Source: Chiloscyllium plagiosum (lineage: Eukaryota). From it: a DNA stretch of 64,000 nucleotides. The notes beneath the pieces are model-generated. The model was given only the letters and a program-made list of their open reading frames with translations. It had not been told where the DNA came from and did no database searches. The position numbers and the translations under genes are program-made. The stretch covers positions 3,896,379 to 3,960,378 of the forward strand of contig NC_057752.1 in the NCBI RefSeq assembly GCF_004010195.1, written 5' to 3'. Of the stretch, positions 5,426 through 58,902 are shown in pieces (position 1 is the stretch's first letter; each line of letters opens with the position of its first letter).

Positions 5426-5630
5426 TTTGGAGATGCCGGTGTTGGACTGGGGTGTACAAAGTTAAAAATCACACAACACCAGGTTATAGTCCAACAGGTT
5501 TAATTGGAAGCACACTAGCTTTCAGAGTGTCTCTCCTTCACCTGATGAAGGAGCGACGCTCCGAAAGCTAGTGCTTCCAATTAAACCTGTTGGACTATAA
5601 CCTGGTGTTGTGTGATTTTTAACTTTGTCA
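5426..5630. mobile_element. Fold-back mini-PLE (family B) with hammerhead motif
   Basis: Near-perfect palindrome 5456-5628 plus a ~30-nt one-sided tail; TTTTTAAGA duplicated at 5417-5425 and 5631-5639. Confidence 0.8.
5539..5573 (+). ncRNA. Minimal type I hammerhead ribozyme motif
   Basis: CAC-CTGATGA-A-GGAGC-GAC-GCTCC-GAAA-GC-TA-GTG: stem I CAC/GTG, 5-bp stem II, palindromic AGCT stem III. Confidence 0.75.
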
Positions 5631-6371
5631 TTTTTAAGAAATGCCTTAAAAGAGGAAAGCGAGGAAGAGAAATGCAAAATGCTGCAATTGCTGGAAATCT
5701 GAAATAAAAACAAAGTGCTGGTAAAATTCCGCAGAGGTAGCATAATATTCAATCTCACTCTTTTAAAATCAAAATGTTGCTTGACTGGGTGCCAATATAG
5801 GTCAGTGAGCACAGGGGTGATATTAGTTGGTGTGAGTTATGACAAGACAGGAGAGTTTCAGATAATCTCAATATTTTCAGTCCCAATCCTGACTAACATC
5901 TTGAGAATTGCGATTGTCAAAATGCACACACACGCACACGCACGCACACAGAGTCTGAGAAAGCTGACAGGTAAGGGCTGAGGAAATCTCAGAACAGACT
6001 TTGCACCTTATTAATTTCTAATGTGGCTCACATGCCAATAATAAAAGAAAAATCCATTATAATAAATGAAGTATTAGCAGCTCTATTTAAAAATTCATAA
6101 ATCCCAGCCATAAAATGAAAATGTAATTACATTTCTTTATTAAGATTTAAGTATGACCCTGGATTTATGAAGTGACTTTTTTTTTCTGACTTAAACTTTT
6201 CCTGATTTAAAGTTTTTCATGACCTATATTAGTGCATGGGTAAGTAATTGTGGTAAAAATGCATTCTCCAAGCAGAGGGATTATTGATTGTTTCTAAAAG
6301 AAGGCACAGAATGGTTACAGTGCAAGAGGAGGCCACTCAACCCATGATACCCATGCTGGTTCTCTGTCAAA

Positions 6372-6491
6372 GTTTAGATTAGTGTGGTGCTGGAAAAGCA
6401 CAGCCGGTCAGGCAGCATCCAAGGAGCAGGAAAATCAACATTTTGGGCAAAAGCCCTTCATCTGATCTCCAGCATCTGCAGTCCTCACTTT
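6372..6491. mobile_element. Rearranged family A PLE pseudo-LTR remnant
   Basis: GTGCTGGAAAAGCACAG...GGCAGCATCC...GGGCAAAAGCCCTTCATC shared with 40597-40829. Confidence 0.7.
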
Positions 6492-7212
6492 TGTTCATTC
6501 ACCTGTCTTTTCTACCCCAGCCCTGCGAAATGTTTTTCTTCTCAAAATTATTTAATTTCTTTTTCAAACTACCTCTCCCACACTCTTGGGCAGTCCTTTC
6601 CAGATCCCAACCACTTGCTCTATTTAAAAATAAAGGTTTTGCTCATATCACGATTGCTTCTTTTGCCATTCACCTTAAATACGTGTTCTCTGGTTCTTGA
6701 CCCTTCCTACAATGGTAACAGTCTATCCCTATCTGACCTGTCCACTTCTCACGTGATTTTTAATACATTTAATGGCATTCTTCTGAACTGTGATTTTATG
6801 TTGTGACACTGTACCCACTCTCTCACAGGCTGCGAAGATTGATGTCTTGATGCCGATAATGGTTTTCATTGTGCCATTGAGCATCTGGGATTTTTGCAAA
6901 CAATAGGCCAAACAGTATGTCTCTATAACCAGGGAGAATTAATAACTGGGACAGAAACAGAGGAAGGACTGAGAAAGAGGGTGAATGAGAGTAGGCATGG
7001 TCAATCTCAACTCAGGTACAGAAAGAGAAATCAAAAGAAAGCTGGAAAAACTGGACTGAGAGAGAGAGAAAGGAATGTTGAGATGTTACATTTTGTCAAA
7101 ATCTCTGAACACAATTTGCTTTCTGAAGGAATGAAACTCTCCATTCGAAATTGTTTATTTTCTGGGTAGAAATCTACTCTTGGGAAATAAGGCAGGGCAG
7201 GTGACTGAGGGG

Positions 7213-9471
7213 TCACTTTGGGGCCAGCGACCATAATTCTATTAGTTTTAAAATAGTGATGGAAAAGGATAGACCAGATCTAAAAGTTGAAGTTCTAAAT
7301 TGGAGAAAGGCCAATTTTGACGGTATTAGGCAAGAACTTTCAAAAGCTGATTGGAGGCAGATGTTCGCAGGTAAAGGGACGGCTGGAAAATGGGAAGTCT
7401 TCAGAAATGAGATAACAAGAATCCAGAGAAAGTATATTCCTGTCAGGGTGAAAGGGAAGGCTGGTAGGTATAGGGAATGCTGGATGACTAAAGAAATTGA
7501 GGGTTTGGTTAAAAAAGAGAAGGAAGCATATGTCATGTATAGACATGATAGATCGGGTGAATCCTTCGAGTGTAAAGGCAGTAAGAGTATACTTAAGAGG
7601 GAAATCAGGAGGGCAGAAAGGGGACATGAGATAGCTTTGGAAAATAGAGTTAAGGAGAATCCAAAGAGTTTTTACAAATACATTAAGGACAAAAGGGTAA
7701 CTAGAGAGAGAACAGGGCCCCTCAAAGATCAGCAAGGAGGCCTTTGTGTGGAGCCACAGAAATGAGGGAGATACTAAACGAGTATTTTGCAACAGTATTT
7801 ACTGTGGAAAAGGATATGGAAGATATAGAATGTAGGGAAATAGATGGTGACATCTTGAAAAATGTCCATATTACAGAGGAGGAAGTGCTGGATGTCTTGA
7901 AATGCTAAAAGTGGATAAATTCCCAAGACTTGATCAGGTGTACCCTAGAACTCTGTGGGAAGCTAGGGAAGTGATTGCTGGGCCTCTTGCTGAGATATTT
8001 GCATCATCTATAGTCACAGGTGAGGTGTCGGAAGACTGGAGGTTGGCGAATGTGGTGCCACTGTTTAAGAAAGGTGGTAAGGACAAGCCAGGGAACTATA
8101 GACCAGTGAGCCTGACCTCACTGGTGGGCAAGTTGTTGGAGGGAATCCTGAGGGACAGGATGTACATATATTTGGAAAGGCAAGGACTGATTAGGGATAG
8201 CCAACACGGCTTTGTGTGTGGGAAATCATGCCTCACAAACTTGTTTGAGGTTTTTGAAGAAGTAACAGAGACGATTGATGAGGGCAGATCGGACTTGTGA
8301 TCTATATGGACTTCAGTAAGGCGTTCGACAAGGTTCCCCATGGGAGACTGATTAGCAAGGTTAGATCTCATGGAATACAGGGAGAACTAGCCATTTGGAT
8401 ACAGAACTGGCTCAAAGGTAGAACACAGAGGGTGATGGAGGAAGGCTGTTTTTCAGACTGGAGGCCTTTGACCAGTGGAGTGCCACAAGGATCGGTGCTG
8501 GGTCCTCTACTTTTTGTCATTTACATAAATGATTTGGATGCGAGCATAAGAGGTATAGTTAGTAAGTTTGCAGATGACACCAAAATTGGAGGTGTAGTGG
8601 ACAGCGAAGAGGGTTACCTCAGATTACAACAGGATCTTGATCAGATGGGCCAATGGGCTAAAGAGTGGCAGATGGAGTTTAATTCAGATAAATGCGTGGT
8701 GCTGCATTTTGGGAAAGCAAATCTTAGCAGGACTTATACACTTAATGGTAAGGTCCTACGGAGTGTTGCTGAACAAAGAGACCTTGAAGTACAGATTCAT
8801 AGCTCCTTGAAAGTGGAGTTGCAGGTAGATAGGATAGTGAAGAAGGCATTTGGTATGCTTTCCTTTATTGGCAAGAGTATTGAGTATAGGAGTTGGGAGG
8901 TCATGTTGTGGCTGTACGGGACATTGATTTGGCCACTTTTGGAATATTGCGTGCAATGCTGGTCTCCTTCCTATCGGAAGGATGTTGTGAAAGTTGAAAG
9001 GGTTCAGTAAAGATTTATAAGGATGTTGCCAGGGTTCGACGATTTGAGCAATAGGGAGAGGTTGAATAGGCTGGGGCTGTTTTCCCTGGAGCGTTGGAGG
9101 CTGAGGGGTGACCTTATTGAGGTTTGTAAAATCATGAGGACCATGGATAGGATAAATAGACAAAGTCGGGGAGTCCAGAACTGGAGGGCATAGGTTTAGG
9201 GTGAGAGGGGAAAGATATAAAAGAGACCTAAGGGGCAACTTTTTCACGCAGAGGGTGATACATGTATGGAATGACCTGGCAGAGGAAGTGGTGGAGGCTG
9301 GTACAATTGCAACATTTAAAAGGCATCTGGATGGGAATATTAATAGGAAGGGTTTGGAGGGATATGGACCAGGTGCTGGCAGGTGGGACTAGATTGGGTT
9401 GGGATATCTGGTCGGCATGGACGGGTTGGACCAAAGGATCTGTTTCCGTGCTGTACATCTCTATGACTCTA
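7213..9471 (+). mobile_element. 5'-truncated CR1-clade LINE (HER1-like), frameshifted ORF2 with RT and 3' UTR
   Basis: ORFs 7256-7765, 7902-8300 and 8297-9010 carry GNYRPVSLTS, DFSKAFDKV, GVPQGSVLGP and KFADD; ends CTCTATGACTCTA. Confidence 0.95.
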
Positions 9472-10304
9472 AGTGAATTGGTGCTCATGAACAATTATGG
9501 CATTGTTAGAAAGGGTACTTTGCAACGATAATTACTGGATCTAACAGTCTGTGGCGAGTTTAATAGGGTGTTGATGTACAAATCCAGTAACTTAATTGTG
9601 CTCTCAGGGAGGCTGTTCTTGCGTGGCAAAATGGCACAAACTGGCCAGTATTGTTTGAATCTGCAGGATGTCTCACTACAAGTTGCTGGCTGATAGATGC
9701 TCACCATTATTAATGCACCAATCAGGCACCATCCTATCTTCAGCAAAACCAGGTCATTTTTACCTGTGTACTTCCTCTATCGTGCTTCCTACTGTTTCCC
9801 TAATGGGATTTTCCAACAATTTTTGATAATATCATGATCACCATTACTCAGGCTAGCTTTATATTTCCAGATTTAGTCGTTGAATTGAGATTCCACCAGC
9901 TCCTGAGGTGGTATTTAAACCCAGGTCCAAGAGCATTAACCTGGGCCTCTGGGTTACCAATCTGTTAACACTATCACTGTGTGGAGCATCCAATGGCAGG
10001 GATTCTGCGGAGGGGCACTGAATGTGGGAGGTCATGATGACAATTCATCGAATATGTCTGGCCACAGTTAGCAAGCTGATTCTGTCATTGGCGATGGAGC
10101 TGTTGGTGCCAAAGATAGTGAAGATTCCCTTGGACAGGTCAAGGTAGTGGTTAGGGGAAGAGATACTGGTGATGCAATAAGATGTGATGTTTACAGGAAG
10201 AAGGACATATCACAAAGCAAACACCACCCTCCACCCCCCCCCCCAATAAAAAGATCCAGTCTATATTTGACAGAAAGGTGAAAACCAGGAAATCTGAATT
10301 TTGT

Positions 10305-13100: not shown

Positions 13101-13267
13101 CCAAATCAATAGTGTGGCATTTTACTTCGCTGTGATGCTGTTACTTTATCAAACCCACAACCCTCAAAACAACTGCCTCAATTCTAACAAGGTATTACTT
13201 TCACTGGGCGTCTCCTTATCTGCTGTTACCTTGTTAAGCATCTTATCAAGGAAGCAGCCATCTGTAA

Positions 13268-14505: not shown

Positions 14506-14537
<32 letters not shown>
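14506..14537. repeat. (TG)n microsatellite
   Basis: Direct reading. Confidence 0.9.
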
Positions 14538-19090: not shown

Positions 19091-19092
<2 letters not shown>

Positions 19093-19132: not shown

Positions 19133-19632
19133 NNNNNNNNNNNNNNNNNNNNNNNNNNNNNNNNNNNNNNNNNNNNNNNNNNNNNNNNNNNNNNNNNNNN
19201 NNNNNNNNNNNNNNNNNNNNNNNNNNNNNNNNNNNNNNNNNNNNNNNNNNNNNNNNNNNNNNNNNNNNNNNNNNNNNNNNNNNNNNNNNNNNNNNNNNNN
19301 NNNNNNNNNNNNNNNNNNNNNNNNNNNNNNNNNNNNNNNNNNNNNNNNNNNNNNNNNNNNNNNNNNNNNNNNNNNNNNNNNNNNNNNNNNNNNNNNNNNN
19401 NNNNNNNNNNNNNNNNNNNNNNNNNNNNNNNNNNNNNNNNNNNNNNNNNNNNNNNNNNNNNNNNNNNNNNNNNNNNNNNNNNNNNNNNNNNNNNNNNNNN
19501 NNNNNNNNNNNNNNNNNNNNNNNNNNNNNNNNNNNNNNNNNNNNNNNNNNNNNNNNNNNNNNNNNNNNNNNNNNNNNNNNNNNNNNNNNNNNNNNNNNNN
19601 NNNNNNNNNNNNNNNNNNNNNNNNNNNNNNNN
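19133..19632. other. Assembly gap, 500 N
   Basis: Run of exactly 500 N. Confidence 1.
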
Positions 19633-20590
19633 GCCTTCTGTCAGACAGCCAATCCTCAATCCATGCCAGTTGCTCACCTCGAACACCATGGGCCCTCACT
19701 TTATTCAGCAGCCTCCCGTGAAGTATCTTATCAAAGGCCTTTTGGAAGTGAAGACAGATACCATCCACTGGGTTTCCCTGCTCTAACCTGCTTGTTACAT
19801 CTTCAAAGAATTCTAACAGGCTTGTCAGGCACGACCTTCCCTTACTAGATCCATGCTGACTTGTTTTAATCCGACCTTGCACTTCCACGAATTTAGAAAT
19901 CTCATCCTTAACAATGGATTCTAGAATTTTACCTACAACTGAGGTTAAGCTAATCAGCATACAATTTTCCAACTTTTGTCTTGATCCTTTCTTGAACAAG
20001 GGAGTTACAACAGCGATTTTCCAATCATCTCGGACTTTCCCTGACTCCGGTGGCTTTTGAAAGATCACAACCAACGCCTCCACTATTTCCACAGCCACCT
20101 CCCTCAGAACTCTAGGATGTAGCCCAATGGGGCTAGAAGATTTATCAATTTTTAGATCTTTTAGCTTTTCTAGCACTTTCTCTTTTGTAATGGTTACCAT
20201 ACTCAACTCTGCTCCCGACTCTCCTTAATTGTTGGGATATTACTCGTGTCTTCCATTGTGAAGACTGACACAAAGTACTTATTAAGTTCTTCAGCTATTT
20301 CTTTATTTCCTATCACTAACCTTCCTGCATCAATTTGAATGGCCCAAACTTTTGCCTCTCGTTTGTTTCTTATGTATTGAAAGAAACTTGCATTATCATT
20401 TCTAACATTACTGGCTAGCTTACCTTCATATTTGATCCTCTCCTTCCTTATATCTCTCTTGTTATCCTCTGTTTGTTTTTGTAGTCTTCCCAATCGTCTG
20501 ATTTTAAATTGCTCTTGGCCACTTTATGGGCTCTCTCTTTCTATTTGATACGTTTCCTGACTTCCTTTGTCAGCCATGGCTGTCTAATTC
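19633..20590 (-). mobile_element. CR1-clade LINE ORF2 fragment (second family)
   Basis: GLHPRVLREVA...ISLTSVVGKILE...FQKAFDKILH. Confidence 0.9.
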
Positions 20591-21720: not shown

Positions 21721-22010
21721 TAATATATTTTAAAATGTTTAGAAAGCACCAGGTTATTGGCTACTTATAAAACAAAGTATACCTTTTCCGTTCCCCATCC
21801 GTAAAATGACCCAAAGTGCTTCACCGTCAATGATGATCGTTTTTCAACTATAATGATTGCTTTAATATCGGAAGCATTGCAACTAATTTGCACACGGAAA
21901 TCTCCCACAAACAGAAATGTGATAATGACCCAGATAACTGTCTTTGTTATGTTTATTTGAGGTACAAATATTTGCCAGGACACCAGAGGACTTCCCTGTT
22001 CTTTCACATA

Positions 22011-24847: not shown

Positions 24848-24932
24848 ATGGAATCTGCTATGGTCACTCTACGCAACATATTTGAGCAGTTGCTCAGACA
24901 AATGGAAGTACTGAATGAAGGAATTGAACCTC
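24848..24932 (+). CDS. RACGAP1: RACGAP1 coding exon 1 (exon begins 24844)
   Basis: tag|[36 protein letters not shown]|gtaagc. Confidence 0.95.
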
Positions 24933-42127: not shown

Positions 42128-42162
<35 letters not shown>

Positions 42163-45100
42163 CTCTCTTCCTCCGTGCCATCTTCTGTTAAATTTTTCTG
42201 TTGCCGCAATTTTTGGTTTTGTTTAACTATTCTCCATGTAAACGTTTGACTGCAAGCTTTGTCCCAGATTGTTTTCTGGAGTTTGTCGAGTTTACGTGAT
42301 ATTTTGAAATTATTCAATAATTTTTTAGTTAAGAGCGAGGCTTCTTTTCACGTTTTTGCGATCTATAAGTAAGCCTGGGTGTCATGCGCAAACCTAGGAT
42401 TGTCCCAAGCATGGAGCCAAGTATGATGTAATGGGTGATTTATTATCCCAGGTGTCTGCCTGTGCTTCTCTAAAGAAACTGCTTAAAGGTGTATAAGGTG
42501 AGGTTGGAGGCGCACGTATGTGGTACTGACTTCCACAACCCTGGAACAGTGCTGCAGTATTCCAAATGACAATATGTTTGTCCTTTTTATATTTTTATAG
42601 GTTATAAAGCCAGAATCATGTGTTCCTTGTGGCAAAAGGATCAAATTTGGAAAGCTGGCCTTGAAGTGCCGAGACTGCAGAGTGGTGTCTCACCCTGAAT
42701 GCCGAGATCGCTGTGCACTCCCCTGTATCCCAACTTTGGCAGGAACCCCTGTGAAAATTGGAGAAGTAAGCTTCACCCTTAGTCTGAAAATCTGGTATTG
42801 TTATCAGGCAGCAGAATTGATCAATTAAGCCCTTTGCAATTGTAAAGTAAAACTAGATAAACTTGTCTTAAGTTTTTCAACAGTTTAGACCAGCTAAGTG
42901 TTAACAAATCACTCTCAAACATGAAATGACAAATAGCTATTTACAGTGTAATCAGCTGTGGCATTGAGGTACAATATGATACTTTTTAATATTCCATCAA
43001 GTGTTTTCTTTGTCATAAATGATCTGCATAGTTTAACAAATTATCGATTTGGGTGTATGCAATTAATTTATAAATGAAATGTCTAAGTAAATCACCCTCA
43101 TCTTATCATTCTGAATGACTATGGTATTTCTTCTGAAATATTCATCATTTTGTTTGTGTTGCTTCCAGGGGATTTTGGCAGACTTCACATCTTCGAAGTC
43201 ACCCATGATCCCATCCATTGTGGTGCATTGCATCAATGAGATTGAGCAAAGAGGATTATCTGAGGTAGGACTAAAACCTTTCATTACTAATTTGCCAATT
43301 TGGAGCCTTAATACAAAATAAACTGGAGTCCATCAAACCATTTCCATGTCTAGACGTTAAGTTTTCAAGCTGTTTATATTTTTCTTCTCACGCTATTCAG
43401 TCCTGGAGTTCAAGCTCTGTGTAGGCAACGCACTGATGAATTGTAATTATTGTTAAGCAGGGTACCAACAATTCCGATTATTTTTGTGAAGCTTGAAGGA
43501 ACACACTTTGCCCTATAGAAATAATCCTGCCCTTTTACTAGCTACAGCAATAAATTGAGCATGCACTTGCCCCATTCCAACACAAAATGGCACACGCTCA
43601 TCGAACCTCAAAATGCTGATTGTCACAGGCAGGGGTGTTGGGTGCATAACAGTGGGTCCCCTTCAAAATATTGACATCCTGTTTTAATGCTAGGTGAATT
43701 AATGAGCTTGTGTATAAGTGGGCCATTTATCAAAAAAGTAAGGTTGGAAAAGTGTGTTCAAGGTTCACAGAAATAGCTTGTCAGGTTTAATTGTACAATG
43801 CTAGTAACTGGTGTCTCTATTAGACTGGACTATACCGTATCTCTGGGTGTGACCGCACTGTGAAAGAGCTAAAGGAGAAGTTCCTGAGAGGGAAGAACAT
43901 GCCATTGCTCAGTAAAGTGGATGACATTCATGCAATCTGTGGACTTCTGAAAGATTTTCTGAGGAATTTGAAGGAACCCATTGTGACTTTCAAACTGTAT
44001 TCAGCGTTTGTAAGTGCAGCAGGTTTGTAAATTTTGATTCTGGTGATGAGCTTTGAAAAGAGGAACTTGTTTGTTGAATAACTGAAGATATGACTCAGCA
44101 TGGACAATCCAATGGCAATGAAATAAGAGCAAATTACTGCAGATCTAGAAATCTTGAATAAAAACAGAAAATGGAGAAACTCGGCAGGGCCTGCAGCATC
44201 TGTGAAGAGCAAAATTGAGTTCACTTCAGTACTGAAGATTAGACTTGAAACACTTTAACCCTGTTTCTCTCTTGACTGATGCTGCCAGACCCACTGAGTT
44301 TCATCAGGTGTTTTGTTTTTAATTCAACTAAGTCTGTTTTGAGGGTATATAGGTGTCCAGTCAATATTGCCTTTATTAACTGTTGCTTCTGTTTCTAAAG
44401 GCTCCAATTTTGAGACTTAAAATACTAATCATTCTTTAAATATTCGCTGTTCTTTTAATTTTGATGTCAAGTAATCTGTACGTTAGAAAGAAATGAAACA
44501 GCTGTTGCCAGGAAGATCCCAGGTTTGAAGCCCAGTCATTTTTGTACCGCCTCGCCAATGATGACTAAATTCAATGAAATTAAACTCAATGCCTTCCTCG
44601 TTGTCATGAGAGAACCTTGCAGATTTCTGCTCTTGATCATTATTGTGTCATCCGCCCCTCCCATACTCTGCTCGTGTGGGGATATTAGCAAAATCGTCAT
44701 CAGTAGGAGCTGGCTGTGATGCTTCCTGTGATCAGGTTGCCTGCTGGTACTTCCTGTAAAGGTGTGCAGACACAATACCATTTGGGTGAGGTGCCAACAG
44801 ACAGCACCCAATACTGTCTGGAGCAGAAGGAAAAGTCTGATTTTGGGGGGGGAAAATGAATCCCAAAACTATGGTTCAGGAGGGAAAGGGGAAACAAATT
44901 GGGTTACTAGATTGTTAGTTGAACTAGTAAACTTTAACAACCTTGCTAATTTAACATTGGGTATGAAGGCACTTTACAAAGTAGTCAATCCACCTGAGGG
45001 TTCAGATGTGCTCAATAGAAAGGAGCAGCAAGTGTTTGTTGTTTTTAAACTCTTCTGGAGCTATTTGCTTTCCCTTGCATTGGAGCATATGTTTTTGCTT

Positions 45101-48100
45101 TTTTTTATATCTGGCAAGTTTGCTGGTTAAGACAGAGTGGAGTTTAGATTATTGGTCCTGTGTAAAATTGTTGGATATTAACCTAAAAGGGAATGGTATT
45201 CTATGATTGATTTTTTTTTTTGTGCTATATCATTGTGCTTCAGTCTATTCAAAGGGGATAAAATTTTGCAATGTATATTAAAACTGGACTTGTTTTCCTG
45301 TAGGAAATGTAAATTAATTCATTTCATGCATTCAACAGAATTCAGCGTTCCTAACTGATCTTTCCCTAGGGGCAGAGATGTTGCGCAGCTTGTCTCACCA
45401 ATGTTTTGTTTCATTCTGTAGAAATCCCTGACGATGATAACAGTGTTGCAGCAATGTATCAGGCTATCAGTGAGCTGCCCCAACCTAACCGAGATACTTT
45501 GGCATTTCTGATGATTCATCTGCAGAGGTATGTTTGGAAACTTTTGCAGTTTAAGACATTCACTACATCAGGGGTGTCCAATCCTTGGCAGCATTTGTTG
45601 TGGCTGGTGAGTGGCTGATGCATCATAATACATTATTGATTAAAATCTCAATTAAAAGCAGCCATTTCTCATTTTATGAGCGTGTGAATTGGGAGCAGAA
45701 GCAGGCCACTTGATTCTTTTTGCTTCTGCTCCCACCATTCAGTGTGATCTAGGCTCTGGCCTCCACTCCAAATTCCTATCTATCCCCTGATAACCTTTGA
45801 CTCTATTAGTTAGTGAAGAATCTGTCTATTTCTGCCTTAAAAATGTGTCAACGACCCAGCCTCCTCCATCTACAGAGGAGTGAGTTACACTGACACATGA
45901 TCCCCTGGCAGAAACAATTCCTCCCCAACTTTGTCTTCAGTGGGAGACCACTTGTTCTTGCCTCTCCAAAAAGGGAAAATAGTATCCACCGCATCAAATC
46001 CTCTCAGGATTTTGTATGTTATTAATAATATCACATCTCATTCTTCTAAATCTGAATGAGTATTGTGCAACCTTTCCAGAGAAAACCCCTTCGTTCCAGG
46101 TTGCAATCAACTGAACTTTCTCCTAACTGCTTTTCGTGCAATTATATCTTAAATAAGGAGACCAAAAATATACACAGTACACTAAATGTGGTCTCGCATT
46201 GCCATTTTCCTTCTCTCCTTTCCTATCCCGTTCTTCATCTTTTCAATTGCTTTGTAAACAAAAACATGGAGTGAATGCAACTTTGAATCTTGCATGAGTG
46301 GAGGCAGAAGCACTCTGTGCACTGGTTGCCCTTTGCTTGGAAAGGAGTGTAGTTTGACAGGTTCCACTTCATTTCTTTCGTGGGGTTAGGTTTAAATCTT
46401 TTGTTAAGCTTATGACTTCTCATGAAGTAGAAACATTTCCTTTTTATCTACATATTCAAGCTATAATTTGATCTCTGGATTTATTTTTAACTGAGCCTAA
46501 GAAACAGAACAGAAAAAGAAACTGTTCCAGAACCGAGAAGATACCTCACCAATTGGAGAGGTTTTTATAGCCACTTCCAGAATGAGACAGGACATGTTAG
46601 AAGCTACAAAACAAAGCCTTCAAGATGAGATCCAGACTTTGCAAACTCATGTGGAGACAATTCAACAAGTGTTATCTGACCTTAAAAGTCCAGCTCTGTG
46701 CAAAATTCAGAAACCACACCAGCCTTGAAGCCAATCTTGAGCTGTTTATTCTCCCAGTCGTGTTTCGCTCAATTCAATGTTTCAATTCAAATTTGCAAAA
46801 ACAAAATCTGTCATTTTGTTCATGATTATTGGACTGAAGTTTAAGATTTTTGTCCTGTATCTCCATTTATTTGATGGAAACATTTTTTTATTAATAGGCA
46901 TTAGCGAAATTTCATTGCATCATGGAAATTTAATATGGCTTGTGCACCAGTTAGCTGGCTGTATGGTTCTGCTGTGTTCCATTGCTATAAAATCTTGAAT
47001 AATATTTTGCTTGCTTCATTGGTCTGCTCAAGTAAACCAGAAAGTTTGCTTAATTTGATGCAAAACTCTGAACTTGAGTTTTTTTTTCCCTCCCAGAGTG
47101 GCTAACAGCCCAAAATGCAAGATGGACATAACTAACCTTGCCAAGGTCTTTGGCCCTACAATAGTGGGTTATTCCACACCTGATCCATCTCCCATGTCAA
47201 TGCTACAGGAAACCAAGCAGCAACCAAAGGTACGTAGGTGGTGGTCCCAGGTGGTGGAATCAAGTTTGGGCTTTTAAAGTTAACCCTTCCTTTCATGTTC
47301 CTAAGTGACATGCAGAGCTACTGGTGATCAAAACATCTGGTGTACACTGCAAACATTCTGACATCTGTACTGTAATTGCTGCTTTCTGCAGAGGTGAAAA
47401 GGGTGAACTTGGGTCATTATCTCAAAAGGCACAAGACTGTTAGAATTTCTGGTGCTTGCAGTTGGAAGTTTATCTGACGTTGGTGCTATGTGCATCATGT
47501 CACAAAGACAGTCACAGTAGCAATCTTTTATTGTGAACATTATTGTTTTATCTTGGGTTAACCACTAATTGCACAAACCATAATCTCTAGCCTTGGACTT
47601 AATGGCGCAAATAAGTACTCTTATGATCTAGTTATCTGTGACTTTACAAGGTTTTCAGGTAAAATGGTAGCAAGCAGTCTTTTTTTGTTTGTGTGTCTGT
47701 TTTGAAACTGACAATTTAAATGTTGCTGCTTTTGTGGTAGGTGGTTGAACGTTTCCTATCTTTGCCAGTGGAATACTGGAACCAGTTTACAATGGTGGAA
47801 CAGGAGAATATCCAACCTAATCATATCATTGAAAATTCTAATGCTTACAGCACTCCTGATATGAAAGGTAATACTCACGGTTATCTAAACTGGTGAAATA
47901 CCATTCTGACTTGTTTCAAGCTTTGCACTTGAGGGTATCCTCCAATAGTTCAAAATTATTCTTAAGATCGATTTTTCAAGTCTGCTATCGGAAAGATGTT
48001 ATTAAACTTGCAAATCTTTTCTGAACGCTTTCAAGGATGTTGCCAGGTTTGGAGGATTTGGGCTATAGGGAGAGGCTGAATAGGCTGGGGCTTTTTCTCC

Positions 48101-51100
48101 CTGGAGCGTCGAATGCTGAGGGGTGACCTTATAGAGGTTTATAAAATCATGAGGGACATGGATTGGGTAAATAGTCAAGGTCTCTTTCCCAGGGTAGGGG
48201 AGTCCAAAACTTGAGGGCATAGGTTTCAGGTGAGGGGGAACGATTTAAAAAGGGCCTGAACGGCCCCCTTTTCACACAGAGGGTGGTGCGTGTACAGAAT
48301 GACCTGCCAGAGAAGGTGGTGGAGATGGGTACAGTTACAACATTTAAAAGGTATCTGTATAGGTGGATGAATAAGAAGGGTTCTGAGGGATATGGGCTAA
48401 GTGCTGGCAAACGGAAATAGATTGGTTTACATATCTGTCAGTGCGGATGAGTTGGACTGACTGGTCTGTCTCTGTGCTGTATAACTATGACTGTTAGACC
48501 ACTTGGTCCACTGACACCAGTACCTAGCTAAGTCAAAGACTCAGCTTGTGACTTAACCTTAGCATGATCCCATAACATGATGCTGACTCCATCTTTTAGT
48601 TGTGACATTAAACTATGCCATGACCATACTCTGTAGATCCTGTTACAATATTCAAAACCAGGGAACGGGTTCTCCTCATGACTTTGCCAGCATTCGTTCC
48701 TCAAACAGCAGTTCATTCACCATTACTGTAGGATCTTGCTATGTGCAAAATGGATGCTCTGTTTAATAAATTCACTGACACTGCCAATATAATTCATGTA
48801 AGTCACTTTGGGATGTTTGTGAAATGTGACCAGCTGCGACTGTTGAGACCATGGCTCTTTTATTTTTTTCTCTCATTTTTTGGTTTGGACCTGAGAGTTG
48901 AAATTAAGAATTGAACTTTGAATTATAGCTTGCTTTAAAAAGTGCTAACAAGAAGTGAACTAATAGAATCACTGCAACAAGTTGACGAGTATTTTAATTT
49001 GCTGCTGTGAAAAATGCCCAGTATTAATGCACTTGTATGTACATTTGTTAGACTATTAAAAGTGTAGGTGGTAAGTCAGTGTCATAAACTCTCCAAAGTA
49101 ATTGTAATTAAAAACCCCATTTTACACCTGTCTCCTTTCATTGCTTGAAAAGGCTGGTGTAATACTTTATTGAGAAGTTCTCATTTCATTTTGATATCTC
49201 TTCAACTTTGTGCAGTAGTTAGGAATTTTCATTCGTCTATGAAAATTCAGCTTTCCAGGCCTTCCACAACATCCAGGACTGCTCCATTGATGCACATGAG
49301 AGCATAAGCCACTTATCTTGGTGACGTGCTATTACTGTGCATGCAGATACTGTACTTGCACCAGCCTGGGTCCTCCTAAACCAGGAGCACCCAAGTCAGG
49401 ATTATGTCAGGCACAACAGATCTCACTAGTAAAATCTGGTCCAAATTGTAGATCTATCTGCAAATGGAGCTGCTCCAGGACATAATTGGTGCTCCAGTTT
49501 CCTCCCACAATCCAAATATGTGCGGGTTAGGTGAATTGGCCAAGCTAAGATTGTCCATAATGTTCAGGGATGTGTAGGTTAGGGGTAAATGTAGAGTAAC
49601 GTGGAATGGTTCTGGGTGGGTTACTCTTCGGAGGGCCGGTGTGGACTTGTAGGGCTGATTGGCTTGTTTCCATACTGTAGGGATTCTATAACGATCATCT
49701 ATGTGTAACTACACGTTAGTGCAGTCTCAACATAACGGATCTTCCATGAAAATCTAAATGTAAACTCTTGAAAGTATCTGGAGATAAATTACATTTTGGG
49801 TTTCATTTTCTTTGAAGTCTAATTCATTGGTTTCTTCGCAGTGAGTATGCTTGGACCACTGACCACTCCAGAACATCAAATAATTGGCAAAACCCCTTCA
49901 TCCAGCTCCTTATCTGCACGTGTCAAATCCAGTCTGACCAAGACCACTCCCAAGTAAGTAATCTCTCCTGCAGTCTCGAATCTGATGTAAGAAATGCTGT
50001 TTAATTACCATGTTACAGGGGCCAGTTTGTATGTTTGGGTTGCTCCCCCAGTTACCCTTTCCTTGTCTGATATCAATGGCCTTTCAATGTCACTGGGTGG
50101 GACTGCTGGGATTCTCTATGGGTGTAACCACATGGACTGGAGTAATTCAAGAAGGCAGGATGCCACCATTTTCTTGAGGGCAATTGGATGGGCAGTGAAG
50201 TTTTCCCTGAGCCAGGAACAACCACATTCGGTGAACAAAGGAGAAAAGGATCTTGAGATTTTAGTTGAAGCTCACACGCACACGACCCCACCCCACCCCG
50301 ATCTCTGTCACCATCATCACCACACCACCACATCTCTCTCTGATGTGCACGCGTGCTTGCTCTCATGCATGCTCCTCTCTCTCTCTCTCTCTCGCACGCT
50401 TGCTCTGTTCCCCCGTCCTCTGTTCCCCCTACTCCTTCCCCTCCTTTCCCCCTGCTCCTCCTTCCCCACCCCGCTCCTCTTTTTCCCCCCTTCCCTTCAG
50501 TCACTCACTCACGCCTCTCGCTCATATGCACCCTAACCATCTTCCCATCTCCTCCCTTGTGCACACACTTCCTCCTCCCGATTTCCCTCACACACATTCC
50601 CTCCCCTTTTGTGGGCAGGCACTCCTTCACCCTCTGACATCATCTTTCCCAGACAGTATTGGTTGATAACACCAAATGTTGATCTTTTTCCTTTCAACAT
50701 AATAAGTTTGGGATTGTCACAATAATTCCATCGTTCAAAGTTAAAAGCTAGGAACTTCCTTTTCCTGAGGATCCTTGATATTTCTGTTAATATTTTGTAA
50801 ACAAATCAGTTTCAGAATGAATGGTCTCAATTGCTATGCAACATTTACACTGTTCGGGTCTGATTGCAAGCTCTGCCTGTACCCAAATTGCTTGATTAAT
50901 TTGAAGTGACTTGTATTTGTTCAGCTCCATAACTGTCTTGCTGCTTCTACTTTTGAGGGCATTAAAGTTATTTTCTGCCTGCTCTGATCAAATCCAAAAC
51001 CTTGCAATCTGACAAGCAAAACTGCAAACAATTACCATGAAACCTTTTCCTTCAATTTCATTTTGTTAAATGTTTTACAGGTTTGGAAGCAAAGGCAAGT

Positions 51101-51156
51101 CATCAGTCAATTTTAATCGAACTGGAAACTTCTTTGCCTCCCCATTATTGAAATAA
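24848..51156 (+). CDS. RACGAP1: Rac GTPase-activating protein 1 (MgcRacGAP/CYK4, centralspindlin subunit); 16 coding exons, 1893 nt, 630 aa
   Basis: All exons are GT-AG and phase-compatible; coiled coil, C1 zinc finger, RhoGAP domain (GLYRISG arginine finger) and C-terminal FFASPLLK match vertebrate RACGAP1. Confidence 0.98.
26093..26218. mobile_element. Family A fold-back mini-PLE remnant
   Basis: Short inverted arms; 11-bp duplication TCCAGATTCAA at 26082-26092 and 26219-26229. Confidence 0.7.
26451..26653 (+). CDS. RACGAP1: RACGAP1 coding exon 2 (coiled coil)
   Basis: [17 protein letters not shown]...[36 protein letters not shown]. Confidence 0.97.
27052..28578 (+). mobile_element. Degenerate PLE (family C-related) with 5' inverted pseudo-LTR and RT remnant
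   Basis: [10 protein letters not shown] (~27680-27710), FYGLPKI and PLRPIV motifs; inverted ends 27055-27115 and 28490-28545; tail ACCTGAGCTACAAATCTTCTCA. Confidence 0.8.
28070..28482 (+). mobile_element. Family A PLE 3' end nested in the previous PLE
   Basis: [15 protein letters not shown]-rich UTR and decayed hammerhead CTGATGA at 28411. Confidence 0.7.
31226..31470 (-). mobile_element. Tx1/L1-clade 3' fragment
   Basis: Reverse-complement homolog of 3436-3615. Confidence 0.6.
33540..33679 (+). CDS. RACGAP1: RACGAP1 coding exon 3
   Basis: [34 protein letters not shown]...SNK. Confidence 0.97.
34093..34132 (-). ncRNA. Minimal type I hammerhead ribozyme motif (intact)
   Basis: Minus strand GCA-CTGAGGA-T-GTC(A)CCT-AGAC-AGG(G)GAC-GAAA-CG-TT-TGC; stem I GCA/TGC; palindromic ACGT. 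Confidence 0.75.
34302..34610 (+). mobile_element. Full-length HE1-type V-SINE (tRNA-derived)
   Basis: A-box TGGCACAGTGG, B-box GAGTTCAATTCCC, V-core TCTGCGTGGGTTTCCTCCGGGTGCTCCGGTTTCCTCCCACAGTCC, (AATCT)n tail, AGGAC duplication. Confidence 0.92.
35680..36060 (+). mobile_element. Deu-SINE remnant
   Basis: TGTTTGTGGGACCTTGCTGTGCGCAAACTGGCTGC...ACTGCATTTCAAAAGT, AmnSINE1-type 3' region. Confidence 0.6.
36375..36450 (+). CDS. RACGAP1: RACGAP1 coding exon 4
   Basis: [26 protein letters not shown]. Confidence 0.96.
37082..37135 (+). CDS. RACGAP1: RACGAP1 coding exon 5
   Basis: [18 protein letters not shown]. Confidence 0.96.
38902..38967 (+). CDS. RACGAP1: RACGAP1 coding exon 6
   Basis: [22 protein letters not shown]; tag| and |gtgagt. 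Confidence 0.92.
39448..39565 (+). CDS. RACGAP1: RACGAP1 coding exon 7
   Basis: [39 protein letters not shown]. Confidence 0.97.
40130..41400 (+). mobile_element. Older CR1/L2-group LINE remnant (YKAQVRS family)
   Basis: [13 protein letters not shown]...FTDD RT remnants; 3' tail GATGGGCATTAAATGTTGGCC. Confidence 0.7.
40597..40829. mobile_element. Family A fold-back mini-PLE with two opposed hammerhead motifs
   Basis: Inverted arms; minus motif CTGATGA-A-GGGC-TTTT-GCTC-GAAA-CA-TC (40704-40737); 15-bp TSD CATCATCCCTTGATG at 40582-40596 and 40830-40844. Confidence 0.85.
41981..42117 (+). CDS. RACGAP1: RACGAP1 coding exon 8
   Basis: [10 protein letters not shown]...[17 protein letters not shown]; acceptor tttttgaag chosen for phase-1 compatibility. 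Confidence 0.88.
42132..42167. repeat. (CT)n microsatellite just after a splice donor
   Basis: Direct reading. Confidence 0.9.
42601..42765 (+). CDS. RACGAP1: RACGAP1 coding exon 9 (C1 domain)
   Basis: [55 protein letters not shown]. Confidence 0.98.
43169..43264 (+). CDS. RACGAP1: RACGAP1 coding exon 10
   Basis: [32 protein letters not shown]. Confidence 0.98.
43824..44022 (+). CDS. RACGAP1: RACGAP1 coding exon 11 (GAP arginine finger)
   Basis: [21 protein letters not shown]...[16 protein letters not shown]; Arg codon 43836-43838. Confidence 0.97.
44122..44326. mobile_element. Old fold-back element of PLE type (decayed)
   Basis: Inverted arms AAACTCGGCAGGGCCTGCAGCATC / GATGCTGCCAGACCCACTGAGTTT around CTGAAGA...GAAAC. 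Confidence 0.5.
45422..45527 (+). CDS. RACGAP1: RACGAP1 coding exon 12
   Basis: [36 protein letters not shown]. Confidence 0.98.
47097..47229 (+). CDS. RACGAP1: RACGAP1 coding exon 13
   Basis: [24 protein letters not shown]...QQPK. Confidence 0.98.
47741..47867 (+). CDS. RACGAP1: RACGAP1 coding exon 14
   Basis: [23 protein letters not shown]...NAYSTPDMK. Confidence 0.97.
47980..48492 (+). mobile_element. CR1 (HER1-like) 3' fragment
   Basis: Same 3' end as 7213-9471. Confidence 0.85.
49488..49690 (+). mobile_element. HE1-type SINE 3' part
   Basis: GGTGCTCCAGTTTCCTCCCACAATCC...GGTGTGGACTTG. Confidence 0.75.
49842..49953 (+). CDS. RACGAP1: RACGAP1 coding exon 15
   Basis: [37 protein letters not shown]. 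Confidence 0.97.
51081..51156 (+). CDS. RACGAP1: RACGAP1 last coding exon
   Basis: [25 protein letters not shown]. Confidence 0.97.
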
Positions 51157-53125
51157 TTGCACATTAACCAAATAATAGTCTCAAAAATCAAAAAATTCCC
51201 TGGAGCTTTGCATTAAACCAACAAGTGCTACCTGCAGAATTTTAGTATTATAATATGCATCATACAGCAATCCTAAAACAGCAGTTTTAATAATGTGTAA
51301 TCACCAGTCTAATCCTTTAAATATAATGTAGTTGACACTTGTTATTCGAGATGGTAGTTCTTTTTTAAATGTTATGAGTCTATTTTTAAGTAGATAACTT
51401 GTATATTCCAGTTTGTATTACTTGTATGATGGGAACTGAAGGTTGAATTCTGTAACCTGTAGACCACAGCAACTGATTTGAAAAAGCATTGGTATGTGTC
51501 TCAGAAACACTAAAAGTTCAGAGTGAAAGATTATTTTACAGTCAAAGATTGTGGGATCTGTTCTTACAGAATGAGAAATGTATGCAGGATAACTGAATGC
51601 TGTAATCCATAATTATATCCAGCTGACTGAACAATTGTGTTTGGCTGAATTTTATATTCTATAATTTTCTGCCTTTTGTGGAGCTATTAAACCTGTACAA
51701 AAGATCATCTGGGTTTTTTTTTGCTTAAATGTCTTGCTACTTTGGAGGTTAGTTTTTCAGTGGTAATCAATATGTATATGGCAGTTTTGTATTGTTAGCA
51801 ATAGACTTGTATTCAGTGGCTCCACACTTCAGTGGGAATCCACCACAAGCCTAAAATACCATGGAATGAATTTTCTGTCTAGCGATTTCTATTACAAGCA
51901 CAGCCTGACTTCTGCCAGTTTTTAACCCAATTGATTGTGTTGACAAATGTTTAATCCAGTTACAGAACAAAACAGGTTTTCAACCAACTTGTCTTTACCA
52001 CAAAAGTTATGCTTTGACACCAGTAGCTATCAAGTTAAATTAATCACTAGTGGTATTTTTAGTGTGAATTGCTCACAATCCGGACATGATAGAGAATTGT
52101 CAAAGAAATTGGTTTTATAAAATGCATTTCAAATTGAGTTCACTACTTTGTGTACCCTCTTGGCAAACAACTGGGCATAGAACTCTTCAAATGTGGGATT
52201 AGCATGGTCCTTTCAGTGATTTAATAGAGGTTCCATTGTCAAATCTTTGTAGATGATAACTTATATGCTGTTTTATTTTTGTTCAAACATAGCGTTCAGA
52301 CAAACTGGATAAAAATTTGTTTTCTCAGCCATCGACAACCAGAAGTTTCTATTTTTACAAAAAACTTGAATTTTTAAAAATACATGTTTAATTTGGCTTG
52401 TGTCTGTGTATGCGTGTAAACATTAACTTGTGATCCATCTTGAAGTGCAAAATTAAATTGGACACAAACGAAGTGCTGACCTTGGTTATGGCTTGCGATA
52501 TGCATCAATATACTTCTGTGGAGTTATTGAATGTATTTGGCACCAATAATAAAATAGAAAATTGTGACCGAAAGTAGAAGCATGCCTCCAACTAATAAAT
52601 TGTATGTCATGCAAACTAGATTTTAAATTATAGATTATGGTGTTATCTAAATGTAGCTTTTACAGAACATGTCAACGCATCTATTCCTGTCAGCTTTTTT
52701 AATATCCCTTTTTATGCATTTAAGTGGTAACTATTGTAAAATATCTGTACCAAAGACTTGTCTGCGCCTCTCAAATTTGACTTCAGCTATAAAATCCTTG
52801 CTTCAGCTGTCTGCTACACAACTGCAGTGAAACCTGTGTATTAGGCACTAAATCGAAGTGAAAACTGATGCAAGTTGTCAATATGCAGCTTTATTTTTGT
52901 TTTTGTATTTCTCAAAATTGAAACCCCGAATACCAGAGAATGTTTGTTTGAACTGTAGTCTTTTTGAAGTGCTTGCAACTGTTTAAGGATATGTCAGTTA
53001 CCAAATTGCTGCAGCTTTATTGATGCATATTGCACAATATATTGTAAGTTGTTTTCACTGTATTGTTGTGTAATACATGCTCCTCTGTTTCAGTAGCTTC
53101 AGTTAAATAAGTGCAGTGATCAACT
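51157..53125 (+). other. RACGAP1: Probable RACGAP1 3'UTR (end uncertain)
   Basis: AU-rich and free of recognisable repeats; AATAAA at 52548-52553 and 52594-52599; GU-rich tract at 53130-53150. Confidence 0.55.
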
Positions 53126-54628: not shown

Positions 54629-55141
54629 TTGTGAGAAGATTTGTAGCTCGGGTGCTCGTTGTTGTGGTTCTGGTCGCCGAGCTGGGAATTTGTGTTGCAG
54701 ATGTTTTGTCCCCTGTCAAGGTGACATCCTCAGTGCTTGGGAACCTCCTGTGAAGACAGCTAACGATCCGCATCCATGAACACCAACTAGCCACGAAACG
54801 ACACGACCAGCTATCCTTAGTAGCCACACACGCAGATGACAAACAACATGAGTTTGACTGGGACAACACTACTATTATAGGACAAGCCAAACAGAGAACA
54901 ACCAGGGAATTCCTCGAGGCATGGCACTCATCCACAGATTCAATCAATAAGCACATCGACCTGGACCCAATATACCGACCACTGTAGCGGACAGCTGGAA
55001 CTGACAACCGGAAGTGGCAGATTCAAACCACTACAAATGCCAGAGGAAAGATCACAGAAGCGCTTCACAGGAGGATGTCACCTAGACAGGGGACGAAACC
55101 TCTGCAACACAAATTCCCAGCTCGGCGAACAGAACCACAAC
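54629..55141. mobile_element. Family C PLE with inverted pseudo-LTR and GIY-YIG tail
   Basis: [11 protein letters not shown]...REFLEAWHS; TSD ACTT(A/C)ACAAAAGA at 54616-54628 and 55142-55154. Confidence 0.85.
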
Positions 55142-58100: not shown

Positions 58101-58235
58101 AGACCAGAACTGCACACAGTACTCTAGGACTCATCAGCACGCTATCCAGCTACAACATAACCTCCCTGTGTTTTTAAAATCAATCCCTTTCGCAATGAAG
58201 GATAAAATTCCATTTGCCTTCCTAATTACTTGTTG

Positions 58236-58438
58236 GAGAAAGTGAGGTCTGCAGATGCTGGAGATCAGAGCTGGAAATGTGTTGCTGGAAAAGCGCAGCA
58301 GGTCAGGCAGCATCCAGGGAACAGGAGAATCGACGTTTCGGGCATAAGCCTGAAGAAGGGCTTATGCTCGAAACGTCGATTCTCCTGTTCCCTGGATGCT
58401 GCCTGACCTGCTGCACTTTACCAGCAACACATTTCCAG
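58236..58438. mobile_element. Family A fold-back mini-PLE with hammerhead core
   Basis: Near-perfect inverted arms; CTGAAGA-A-GGGC-TTAT-GCTC-GAAA-CG-TC at 58350-58377; TSD CTAATTACTTGTTG at 58222-58235 and 58439-58452. Confidence 0.87.
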
Positions 58439-58607
58439 CTAATTACTTGTTGTACCTGCAGACCAGCCCTCTGTGATTCATGCACAAGGACACCCAGGTC
58501 CCCCTGATAGTCGCATGCTGCAACTTTTTACCATTCAAGTAATAATCCTTTTTACTGTTACTCCTACAATAATGGACGATTTTACATTTATTAATATTGT
58601 ATTCCAT

Positions 58608-58902
58608 GGTTTGGGAGAAGATTTGTAGCTCGGGTGCTCGTTGTTGTGGTTCTGTTTGCCGAGGCATGGCACTCATCCACAGACTCTATCAACAAACACA
58701 TCGACCTGGACCCAATATACCGGCCACTACAGCGGACAGCTGGAACTGACAACCGGAAGCGGCAGAGACAGGCCACTATAAATGCCGGAGGAAACATCAC
58801 AGAAGCGCTTCACAGGAGGCTCCCAAGCACTTAGGATGTCACCTAGACAGGGGACGAAACGTTTGCAAGACAAATTCCCAGCTCGGCGAACAGAACCACA
58901 AC
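58608..58902. mobile_element. Short family C PLE
   Basis: Short inverted arm plus [31 protein letters not shown](C/T)CAT at 58596-58607 and 58903-58914. Confidence 0.85.

Follow-up and report, generated by a model that had tools for sequence, protein, structure and literature searches.

What are the short, mirror-image repeats that recur along this stretch of the Chiloscyllium plagiosum genome, and how did they come to be mirror images? In the window, i.e., the whole stretch of 64,000 nucleotides that was analysed, the first-pass annotation had named about ten sites as insertions of hammerhead-bearing Penelope-like elements (PLEs), and all 12 named positions were borne out as repeat insertions. 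Very probably, these are 5′-truncated, dead copies of four repeat families, A to D: coding remnants tie family A (Neptune-type) and family C (Poseidon-type) to PLEs with a reverse transcriptase (RT) plus a GIY-YIG endonuclease (EN), D is related to C in sequence, and B probably makes up a fourth family of this sort. Each mirror-image end probably formed while its copy was being inserted. The copies, including their pseudo-LTRs (pLTRs) and TSDs, are as follows.

A1691: 1688-2134, minus strand; single 5′-truncated copy with endonuclease C-terminus (~2010-2126), 3′ UTR, pLTR and tail; hammerhead with a 3-nt core deletion; weak TSD 1678-1687/2135-2144
B5426: 5426-5630, unstranded; fold-back with tailed arm minus (5426-5541) and tailless arm plus; TSD 5417-5425/5631-5639
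A6372: 6372-6492, unstranded; tailless arm in antisense that stops in the core and is followed by nothing but a sense tail; core decayed; no TSD found
B22011: 22011-23371, unstranded; long inverted copy whose tailed arm (minus) has a long 3′ UTR; its tailless arm is plus (~23135-23371); both hammerheads damaged; TSD 22001-22010/23372-23381
A26093: 26092-26218, unstranded; short inverted copy without hammerhead; TSD 26082-26091/26219-26228
D27052: 27056-28582, unstranded; antisense pLTR without tail (27056-27138), N-terminus of a broken ORF in sense, with a DKG motif (~27139-28060), sense pLTR half plus tail (28491-28582); TSD 27047-27055/28583-28591
A28070: 28062-28490, plus strand; tailless copy nested in D27052, with endonuclease C-terminus and 3′ UTR; decayed hammerhead at 28411; no TSD found
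C34018: 34018-35027, unstranded; inverted, tailed arm minus; sense arm from ~34282, in which the GIY-YIG ORF end runs into the hammerhead, with a SINE-like insert (~34301-34610); TSD 34007-34017/35028-35038
A40597: 40597-40829, unstranded; fold-back, both cores mutated; 15-bp TSD 40582-40596/40830-40844
C54629: 54629-55141, unstranded; inverted, with a remnant of the endonuclease C-terminus; cores either mutated or deleted; TSD 54616-54628/55142-55154
A58236: 58236-58438, unstranded; fold-back with tailed arm minus (58236-58349) and tailless arm plus; TSD 58222-58235/58439-58452
C58608: 58608-58902, unstranded; inverted; tailed arm short, sense arm carrying the ORF end and a single core mutation; TSD 58596-58607/58903-58914

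Three families had been proposed. We find four, since the copy at 27052, placed in C before, belongs to a sister family of C: D aligns to C with scores of 36-39, compared with shuffle maxima of 23-26, and both end in the same 17-nt tail end. The proposed lack of evident similarity between A, B and C stood, with no significant alignment except for an 11-nt stretch common to A and B. B22011 extends further than first noted, to 23371, its right arm having been overlooked, and contains a CR1-like piece (~22514-23040). With nested CR1 and SINE pieces subtracted, PLE ends make up ~5.2 kb of 63.5 kb here, or 8%. The pLTR bins exceed the unique flanks in depth by 3 to 4 orders of magnitude (one DNA run; a rough figure), in keeping with the high-copy, multi-family character put forward originally.

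The assignment to PLEs held for A and C, which their remnants tie to RT plus GIY-YIG proteins. The window itself harbors only the endonuclease ends of these two families; via the shark homologues P0024 and P0001, both are linked to an RT with a C-terminal GIY-YIG domain that has two cysteines between GIY and YIG. The A remnant aligns with whale shark P0024 at 74% over 38 aa (E 2e-12), a protein with a YIDD motif, a CX5CxxC linker and a GIY-YIG domain above the Pfam cut-off. It also matches zebra shark P0026, which continues through an A-like 3′ UTR into residues matching the frame of A's hammerhead, a 14-aa match that is not significant by itself. Over 83 aa, Chiloscyllium punctatum P0001 shares 92% identity with the C remnant; this protein has RVT_1 at E 3e-6 (under Pfam's cut-off) and a CxxC-split GIY-YIG motif. 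A CX2-5CxxC linker between RT and EN is present in P0024, P0057 and P0041 and absent from P0001, P0005 and P0008. Judged from these sequences, family C would be Poseidon-type, lacking the linker zinc finger, and family A would be Neptune-type, where the choice between Neptune and Nematis is made by the linker motif alone, and this motif is common to both.

For D, the pLTR resembles the C-terminus of zebra shark P0008 (71% over 28 aa, E 0.001). Its ORF piece contains a stretch that we take, by eye, to be like the start of an RT; the piece found no match in Pfam or the PDB and no good match among the compared proteins, most of which lack N-termini. None of seven PLE fragments from the window scored above the Pfam cut-off, and the PDB yielded no PLE relative. 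As leads, the ESM Atlas returned GIY-YIG-named clusters at 0.92-0.94, with Pfam on 17% and 46% of members. Family B left no coding remnant in the window and no convincing match among 83 proteins compared, such that its PLE assignment is still one by architecture, as was stated at the outset. DNA patterns for B and A had no matches among metagenome, viral and prokaryote contigs, a collection that does not comprise shark assemblies and is uninformative on B.

With respect to the ribozyme, a strict descriptor recovered exactly three intact minimal cores in the window, one in each of A, B and C, compared with a chance expectation of 0.025 on average and 1 at most in 200 dinucleotide shuffles.

5542-5570, plus strand: family B core; 5-bp stem II, AGCU palindrome, predicted cut after 5570
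34096-34129, minus strand: family C core; stem II with an A-G mismatch, ACGU palindrome, H = U
58350-58377, plus strand: family A core; 4-bp stem II, ACGU palindrome, predicted cut after 58377

These are the cores described before for the best copy of each family: CUGANGA, one extra nucleotide, stem II and GAAA overlapping a palindromic ACGU or AGCU, followed by H. All three have the features of the minimal type I PLE hammerhead, namely the core, the extra nucleotide after position 9, the G10.1-C11.1 pair and palindromic positions 15.2-16.2. In the A core at 58350, the native 5′ strand of stem I was mostly lost at the junction. To call the insertions hammerhead-bearing was nevertheless an overstatement, since only 3 of the 18 arms that overlap the motif keep an intact core, A26093 has no motif, and most others are decayed, many of the core changes being CG>TG/CA. 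Allowing one mismatch gave seven matches, versus 0-2 per shuffle in ten shuffles; one of them (23412, minus strand) lies outside every element and was discarded as chance. In family C, the last ORF codons and the stop lie inside the core and stem II.

Two further points concern the structure. The different stem II sequences had been taken as compensating, but this covariation was not borne out: the families cannot be aligned outside the core, and differing stems are therefore not evidence of covariation. Within A or C, no stem covariation was seen by eye, and where C has the A-G mismatch in stem II, D has an A-U pair. The monomer folds of the three intact cores were no more stable than shuffles (z -0.75 to -1.16), as expected for a minimal PLE hammerhead. 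Cofolding did not produce the active dimer, an uninformative result in an energy model that ignores core contacts. The fold-backs have a minimum free energy of -131 to -176 kcal/mol and each is predicted to fold into a single long hairpin in which the core is buried, either paired or in the apex. Rfam gave no hammerhead match in the window, even at E 10, and its miRNA, snoRNA and lncRNA matches were rejected, lying far under the gathering scores. In poly(A) single-cell data (X21, mostly divergent copies), 7,301 reads on the mapped stretch 21950-28620, which leaves out family C, showed no pile-up of molecule starts or ends; a library of this type can hardly reveal one, and the result carries no weight on cleavage. 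A second run, X22, had no reads there.

The layout of the insertions is much more uniform than their sequence. Ten of the 12 copies, from all four families, are inverted, A1691 and A28070 being single-armed, and a tail of ~27-38 nt sits at exactly one end in all ten inverted copies. The tailless ends of the three C copies coincide within ~1 nt. Direct-repeat TSDs of 9-15 bp scoring 8 or more flank 10 of 12 copies (9 or more: 9 of 12), compared with 291 random boundary pairs, of which eight reached 8, three reached 9 and none 11. Both observations uphold the first-pass annotation. The TSD of A1691 is the weakest (9 of 10 letters), and none was detectable for A6372 and A28070, with element boundaries set by eye and 12 nt slack. 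On average, the TSDs have an AT content of 69%, versus 59% for the window.

This architecture is already published for endonuclease-bearing PLEs (Arkhipova 2013, Cervera 2014, Craig 2021, Frangieh 2024), and its recurrence in unrelated families is therefore expected. Arkhipova 2013 (PMC3846280) describes an inverted pLTR, a 31-bp tail and an 8-10 bp TSD, and Fig. 2 of Craig 2021 (PMC8557442) has the same insertion layout. Shared with the units of these two papers are the 5′ truncation, the adjacent inverted copy, the 30-40 bp one-ended tail, the TSDs, and a pLTR with a hammerhead and TATA plus Inr-like motifs, whereas TSDs of up to 15 bp, the many copies of only 120-230 bp and the shark host differ. 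As in the metazoan minimal hammerheads of Cervera and De la Pena 2014 (PMC4209133), CUGANGA is followed by an extra nucleotide, stem II is variable with G10.1-C11.1, GAAA and the palindromic positions 15.2-16.2 are present, and several families occur per genome, mostly solo. Opposite-strand hammerhead pairs 100-700 bp apart were reported there for Schistosoma, whose helix I has 4-5 bp compared with ~3 bp here.

How might a single insertion yield two opposed arms? In work by Frangieh 2024 (PMC11167929) on anole Poseidon in vitro, reverse transcription had dual internal start sites and the template was uncleaved. Extrapolating from this, the PLE protein would nick both target strands 9-15 bp apart, and reverse transcription would be primed from each nick, at two internal sites bracketing the 27-38 nt tail. 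This would give two cDNAs, one tailed and one tailless, both stopping early, which, as we propose ourselves, would join head to head, often via 1-4 nt of microhomology. The product would be a TSD, an arm, an inverted arm and a TSD, with a single terminal tail. Hammerhead cleavage of the template is unlikely, because the arms run through the cut site. The hammerhead would be carried along passively from the parent pLTR. Autonomous copies would use it as a dimeric or protein-assisted ribozyme; in these dead copies it would decay neutrally and, in the fold-backs, lie buried in the predicted hairpin. C and probably D would, like the Poseidon PAc of Anolis carolinensis (PMC11167929), be Poseidon-type, and they share with it an A/C-rich tail (57-69% A+C), two preferred 3′ ends, AT-rich targets and a template that, here by deduction from sequence, was likely not ribozyme-cleaved. 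In contrast, the PAc ORF starts at stem II, where the ORF of family C ends.

The inner ends of the arms raise a further question. Of the 22 arm ends, eight fall within -11 to +12 of the core and the cut site has none; this clustering has a binomial p of 3e-4 to 0.01 (null shares 8.5-15%), for an interval chosen post hoc. It is possible, if doubtful, that short arms stop at this upstream edge at a 3′ splice site or at a folded, protein-bound ribozyme acting as a roadblock, and not at a transcription start. In A, B and C alike, one copy or more has CACAG at a distance of 4-14 nt upstream of the core, and in D. virilis the intron is reported to end where helix I begins (PMC4209133). However, the TATAAAT at -38 in B, if a promoter, leaves no space for an intron before -4, and there is no spliced joint among the 15 rows listed, out of those and 1,242 further rows, of the read mapping on 21950-28620. 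A rather unlikely reading, which we offer tentatively, is that in Neptune- and Poseidon-type shark PLEs the pLTR promoter starts 4-20 nt upstream of the core. TATAAAT lies at -53 in C as well (chance ~2.5% per stretch of 35 nt). In A, the TATA-like motif, at ~-32 to -36, is weaker. A YYANWYY initiator lies at -4 in both A copies; in one B copy it is found at ~-7. Starting from the tail of the 5′ pLTR, reverse transcription would run off the capped end after ~100-130 nt and mass-produce hammerhead-centred palindromes. The ribozyme would sit at the mRNA cap end, and its protein-assisted cleavage there would remove the cap from the element's own message.

For the inverted arm itself, self-priming (snap-back) on an antisense template, proposed for the same structures in Arkhipova 2013 (PMC3846280), is unlikely to have replaced priming from two nicks. 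There are small palindromes at the junctions of A40597 and A58236, and RNA reads cover the pLTRs in both directions, which may be intronic read-through. Snap-back alone, however, leaves the one-ended tail in 10 of 10 copies unexplained, as well as the very unequal arms of C58608 and D27052 and those of A6372, which cannot fold back because there is no overlap between its two parts. In vitro work supports nicking of both strands with two internal start sites (PMC11167929).

The first-pass annotation further saw a distinct system with non-coding ~200-bp forms, and these fold-backs could be dedicated non-autonomous ribozyme elements, akin to retrozymes or MITEs, amplified as units by PLE proteins. 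This is very unlikely. Three are of similar size (A58236 203, B5426 205 and A40597 233 bp), read depth over the pLTR bins is very high, and non-autonomous derivatives of PLEs are on record (Li, Clavereau and Pollet 2026 preprint, bioRxiv 10.64898/2026.07.22.740005). However, no two copies share a junction: all differ among the four inverted A, three C and two B copies, such that the ~200-bp forms are likely one-off truncations and not a self-amplifying non-coding family. This comparison covers 12 copies of one window, and a master fold-back family may exist elsewhere. Lengths form a continuum from 121 to 1527 bp, ORF ends are part of four copies, few cores are intact, and the core is buried in the predicted hairpin. 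The uniform length, shared centre and symmetric termini of a MITE or self-amplifying family are not seen here, with differing junctions and termini made asymmetric by the tail. Non-LTR retrozymes, reported in the preprint from the one chondrichthyan sampled, are likewise PLE-derived and non-coding with a type I hammerhead, but form head-to-tail tandems with at least two intact ribozymes, whereas the shark copies are head-to-head, dispersed and mostly decayed. Neither head-to-tail tandems of at least two intact hammerhead units nor partial-tandem full-length copies with direct pLTRs occur in the window. That B is not a PLE but some other fold-back repeat with a hammerhead-like core is most improbable, for although a coding link was not found, B has the full PLE signature of a 30-nt one-sided tail, 9-10 bp TSDs and variable inner ends, together with an intact minimal core with extra nucleotide, G10.1-C11.1 pair and palindrome, and TATAAAT upstream.

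We found no account of hammerhead PLEs or their fold-backs in sharks in the literature outside subscription papers; the lone match for "shark" refers to the ribozyme's name and not to the animal, and neither the main text nor supplement file 2 of PMC4209133 names a shark. For annotation, it matters that PLE ends could be mislabelled as MITEs or as microRNA hairpins, the best Rfam matches being weak miRNA models. With so many short copies, such a genome also documents the PLE integration reaction on a large, natural scale. The one-sided tails, the lengths of the TSDs and the inner ends could be used to test the two-site priming model in vivo, and the same copies could test where the template RNA starts relative to the ribozyme. 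The role of the PLE ribozyme was stated to be unclear (PMC8557442). If transcription does start just upstream of the core and the ribozyme decaps the transcript there, it would provide a built-in negative feedback on the element's own mRNA, which would be a function for the PLE hammerhead.

All 12 positions listed in the first-pass annotation are repeat insertions, and their reading as hammerhead ends of Penelope-like elements (PLEs) was real and correctly recognised, if ordinary in kind. A strict minimal-hammerhead descriptor, which matched a mean of 0.025 sites in 200 shuffles, recovers three sites (5542 and 58350 on the plus strand, 34129 on the minus strand), and these are the copies picked earlier as the best preserved. 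As a general description "hammerhead-bearing" goes too far, however: the core is intact in 3 of the 18 motif-overlapping arms, among which the left arm of A58236 counts with half a motif. In the remaining 15, mutation, deletion or a junction has broken the motif, often at CpGs flanking GAAA, and the family A copy at 26093 has no hammerhead. The core damage looks like neutral decay. RNA reads of other A copies mostly run on into intact GAAACGUC (the loose end behind 26129 has 544 RNA reads, with an agreement of 0.75), and therefore the majority of family A has the site.

Families A, B and C are separate, as proposed, and cannot be aligned with one another except for an 11-nt match between A and B (score 22 versus a shuffle maximum of 20, in one of four A-B pairs). 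The copy at 27052, however, belongs not to C, where it had been placed, but to a fourth family, D: its alignment score against C lies above all 300 shuffles and the tail end is common to both, but its stem II is its own. This copy is a 1.5-kb unit bounded by a target-site duplication (TSD) and containing the N-terminus of an ORF, and the family A copy at 28070 is nested in it at the place where the remainder of the ORF is absent. Within the unit (27056-28582), this A piece, itself lacking a TSD, takes the place of most of the D ORF; its first bases recur in inverted form at 28266-28278, followed by ~60 unrelated nt. The arrangement may reflect either nested insertion accompanied by deletion or template switching from one family to the other. 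The B copy at 22011 had been drawn too short; its right end is at 23371.

Ten of the 12 copies are bracketed by TSDs of 9-15 bp; among 291 random pairs the weakest accepted score was reached by 8 and a score of 11 by none. Inverted arms with a one-sided tail were likewise found, ten copies being inverted, each with ~27-38 nt of tail at a single end. Two joints, 26207 to 22015 and 26207 to 27055, each present in nine contigs, connect the end of an A tail with the outer ends of a B and a D copy, respectively; they may reflect insertion beside the ends of other PLEs, or chance in families so numerous. The claim of high copy number is borne out by DNA run X1, where the families are abundant and end-biased: summed contig depth, which is not copy number, is 16-43 in unique bins, 310,757 and 953,162 in the pseudo-LTRs (pLTRs) of B and A, and 40,019-52,742 in the D pLTR as compared to 1,145-7,925 at the D ORF start.

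The proposed link to RT/GIY-YIG ORFs holds for A and C through protein remnants. In family C, the sense arms carry the coding sequence for the last part of a GIY-YIG domain, which matches P0001, a shark RT+GIY-YIG protein without the CX2-5CxxC linker; the remnants are 83-92% identical to Chiloscyllium punctatum and Hemiscyllium proteins, 76% to Rhincodon and 66% to Stegostoma proteins, which makes a bamboo shark or a near relative the likely host. By the linker criterion set out in Craig 2021 (PMC8557442), family C is classed as Penelope/Poseidon. Its ORF terminates within the ribozyme, with the last codons (TEDVT) overlapping CUGAGGA and the stop codon in loop II:

34955-34975, plus strand: overlap of C ORF end and hammerhead
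34109-34129, minus strand: overlap of C ORF end and hammerhead

The equivalent protein ends are TDEVS in Hemiscyllium and ADDVT in zebra shark and, judging from amino acids only, those of the three shark genera would be compatible with keeping CUGANGA. For family A, a stretch of 43 codons (2010-2138) picked out whale shark fragments, whose profile in turn retrieved 60 longer proteins. In P0024, one of the proteins linked to the family, RT, linker and GIY-YIG are all present; by the linker motif, which is common to Nematis, the family is classed as Neptune-type. In the zebra shark protein P0026, the frame runs through an A-like 3′ UTR into the hammerhead frame. Family D has a DKG motif, and its pLTR matches the tail of P0008. 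No coding link for family B was found in window copies, contig collections, reads or fetched proteins. Its upstream end is CA/CT-rich, as presumably is the 3′ UTR of a second shark Neptune family, which we take as a lead only. PLE endonuclease pieces also occur inside database isoforms (P0002, P0007, P0040, P0076, P0077, P0083) of the shark or ray host genes MAP3K7, NT5DC1, NMUR1, ULK1, HHAT and DCC, as annotation artefacts or exonised repeats.

The surrounding sequence is repeat-rich vertebrate DNA of 41% GC:

19133-19632: assembly gap of 500 N
61315-61656 and 62892-63218, minus strand: exons of a gene for a DUF1295/steroid 5-alpha-reductase-like membrane protein near the window end (Pfam E 1e-28 and 1e-12)
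34301-34610, 3616-3775, 49488-49680, 63770-64000: tRNA-like SINE family with CR1-like 3′ end
791-2892, 7201-9476, 19633-20523 and others: numerous fragments of CR1-like LINEs, on either strand
58987-59713: broken frames resembling Gypsy-type pol (RNase H/integrase region), judged by eye only
25060-25520: moderately repeated element without annotation, one copy in the window (run X1 depth 1,000-30,000)
16950-17015: short repeat, weakly similar to the A pLTR (27/32 nt), with its own tail-like stretch

The last is perhaps a fifth, older family. Some CR1-like pieces pair up as kilobase inverted repeats. In the SINE copies, which we take to resemble the shark HE1 SINE, ARAGORN called no tRNA; one copy interrupts a GIY-YIG remnant and is accompanied by a duplication of 5-6 bp.

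With respect to insertion, the copies have fixed outer and variable inner ends, an asymmetric tail and TSDs; most inversion junctions show 1-4 nt of microhomology, and none is common to two copies. According to Frangieh 2024 (PMC11167929), an anole Poseidon protein prefers AT-rich DNA, nicks and extends both target strands, uses two internal start sites that bracket the tail, and works from an uncleaved RNA template; its hammerhead cuts only with the protein present. Staggered nicks would prime two cDNAs, one per start site, which would then meet head to head; this would account for one tail per copy and for unequal or non-overlapping arms. That the inverted arm instead arises by self-priming on an antisense template, as Arkhipova 2013 (PMC3846280) proposes, seems unlikely.

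Relative to core C3, eight of the 22 inner arm ends fall in the interval from −11 to +12 (both ends of A58236, A40597 and B5426, the left ends of A6372 and the D copy), a further one lies at −22 (C54629, left), and none of the 22 is at the cut site, the nearest being ~8 nt past it. Against null shares of 5, 8.5, 12 and 15%, the binomial p is 7e-6, 3e-4, 3e-3 and 0.011, respectively, with ends read by eye, an interval set post hoc and copies picked by the first-pass annotation. It is possible, if doubtful, that these ends are set by a 3′ splice site or a protein-bound ribozyme roadblock rather than by transcription start; the CACAG that precedes each core would suit a splice site. In D. virilis, an internal promoter without TATA and an intron 46 nt past the start are described in Schostak 2008, and the intron end abuts helix I according to PMC4209133. 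A pLTR promoter starting transcription at the upstream edge of the ribozyme is a tentative alternative, itself less likely than not. Of the two B arms, one has TATAAAT at −38 and the other TATGAA; TATAAAT also stands at −53 in all three C arms long enough to include it, and family A has only TATAT or TTTAT at ~−32 to −36. A start 30 nt past TATA would fall at ~−4 in A, −8 in B and −22 in C, near arm ends. A YYANWYY initiator is found at −4 in both A copies and at about −7 in one of two B arms, and in none of the C arms checked. TATA and Inr are reported for a rotifer Penelope pLTR (Arkhipova 2013, PMC3846280).

Each of the short A and B fold-backs is predicted to fold into one hairpin (−131 to −176 kcal/mol) with the core paired or looped out, so that ribozyme activity is improbable in them. 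The existence of a non-coding ribozyme system in its own right is unsupported, since the junctions all differ and the fold-back cores are predicted to be buried. If transcribed, 58236-58438, 5426-5630 and 40597-40829 would form near-perfect hairpins of 80-90 bp, candidate ADAR or Dicer substrates; heavy editing of Penelope is reported for a lizard (PMC5625713).

The literature searched held no shark-specific account of such elements. Penelope is listed in the genome paper of the whale shark, and Li 2026 (bioRxiv 10.64898/2026.07.22.740005) reports tandem retrozymes from a single chondrichthyan, with Neptune and Poseidon the widespread PLE clades of vertebrates. The minimal hammerhead motif is described by Cervera and De la Pena 2014 (PMC4209133), who find more than one family in a genome, solo copies by the thousand, pairs on opposite strands, and dimers that cleave weakly; an inverted copy with tail is in print in Craig 2021 (PMC8557442) and Arkhipova 2013 (PMC3846280). 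Families A and C, and probably B and D, add to PLE clades already described, and their ribozyme and insertion layout are known as well.
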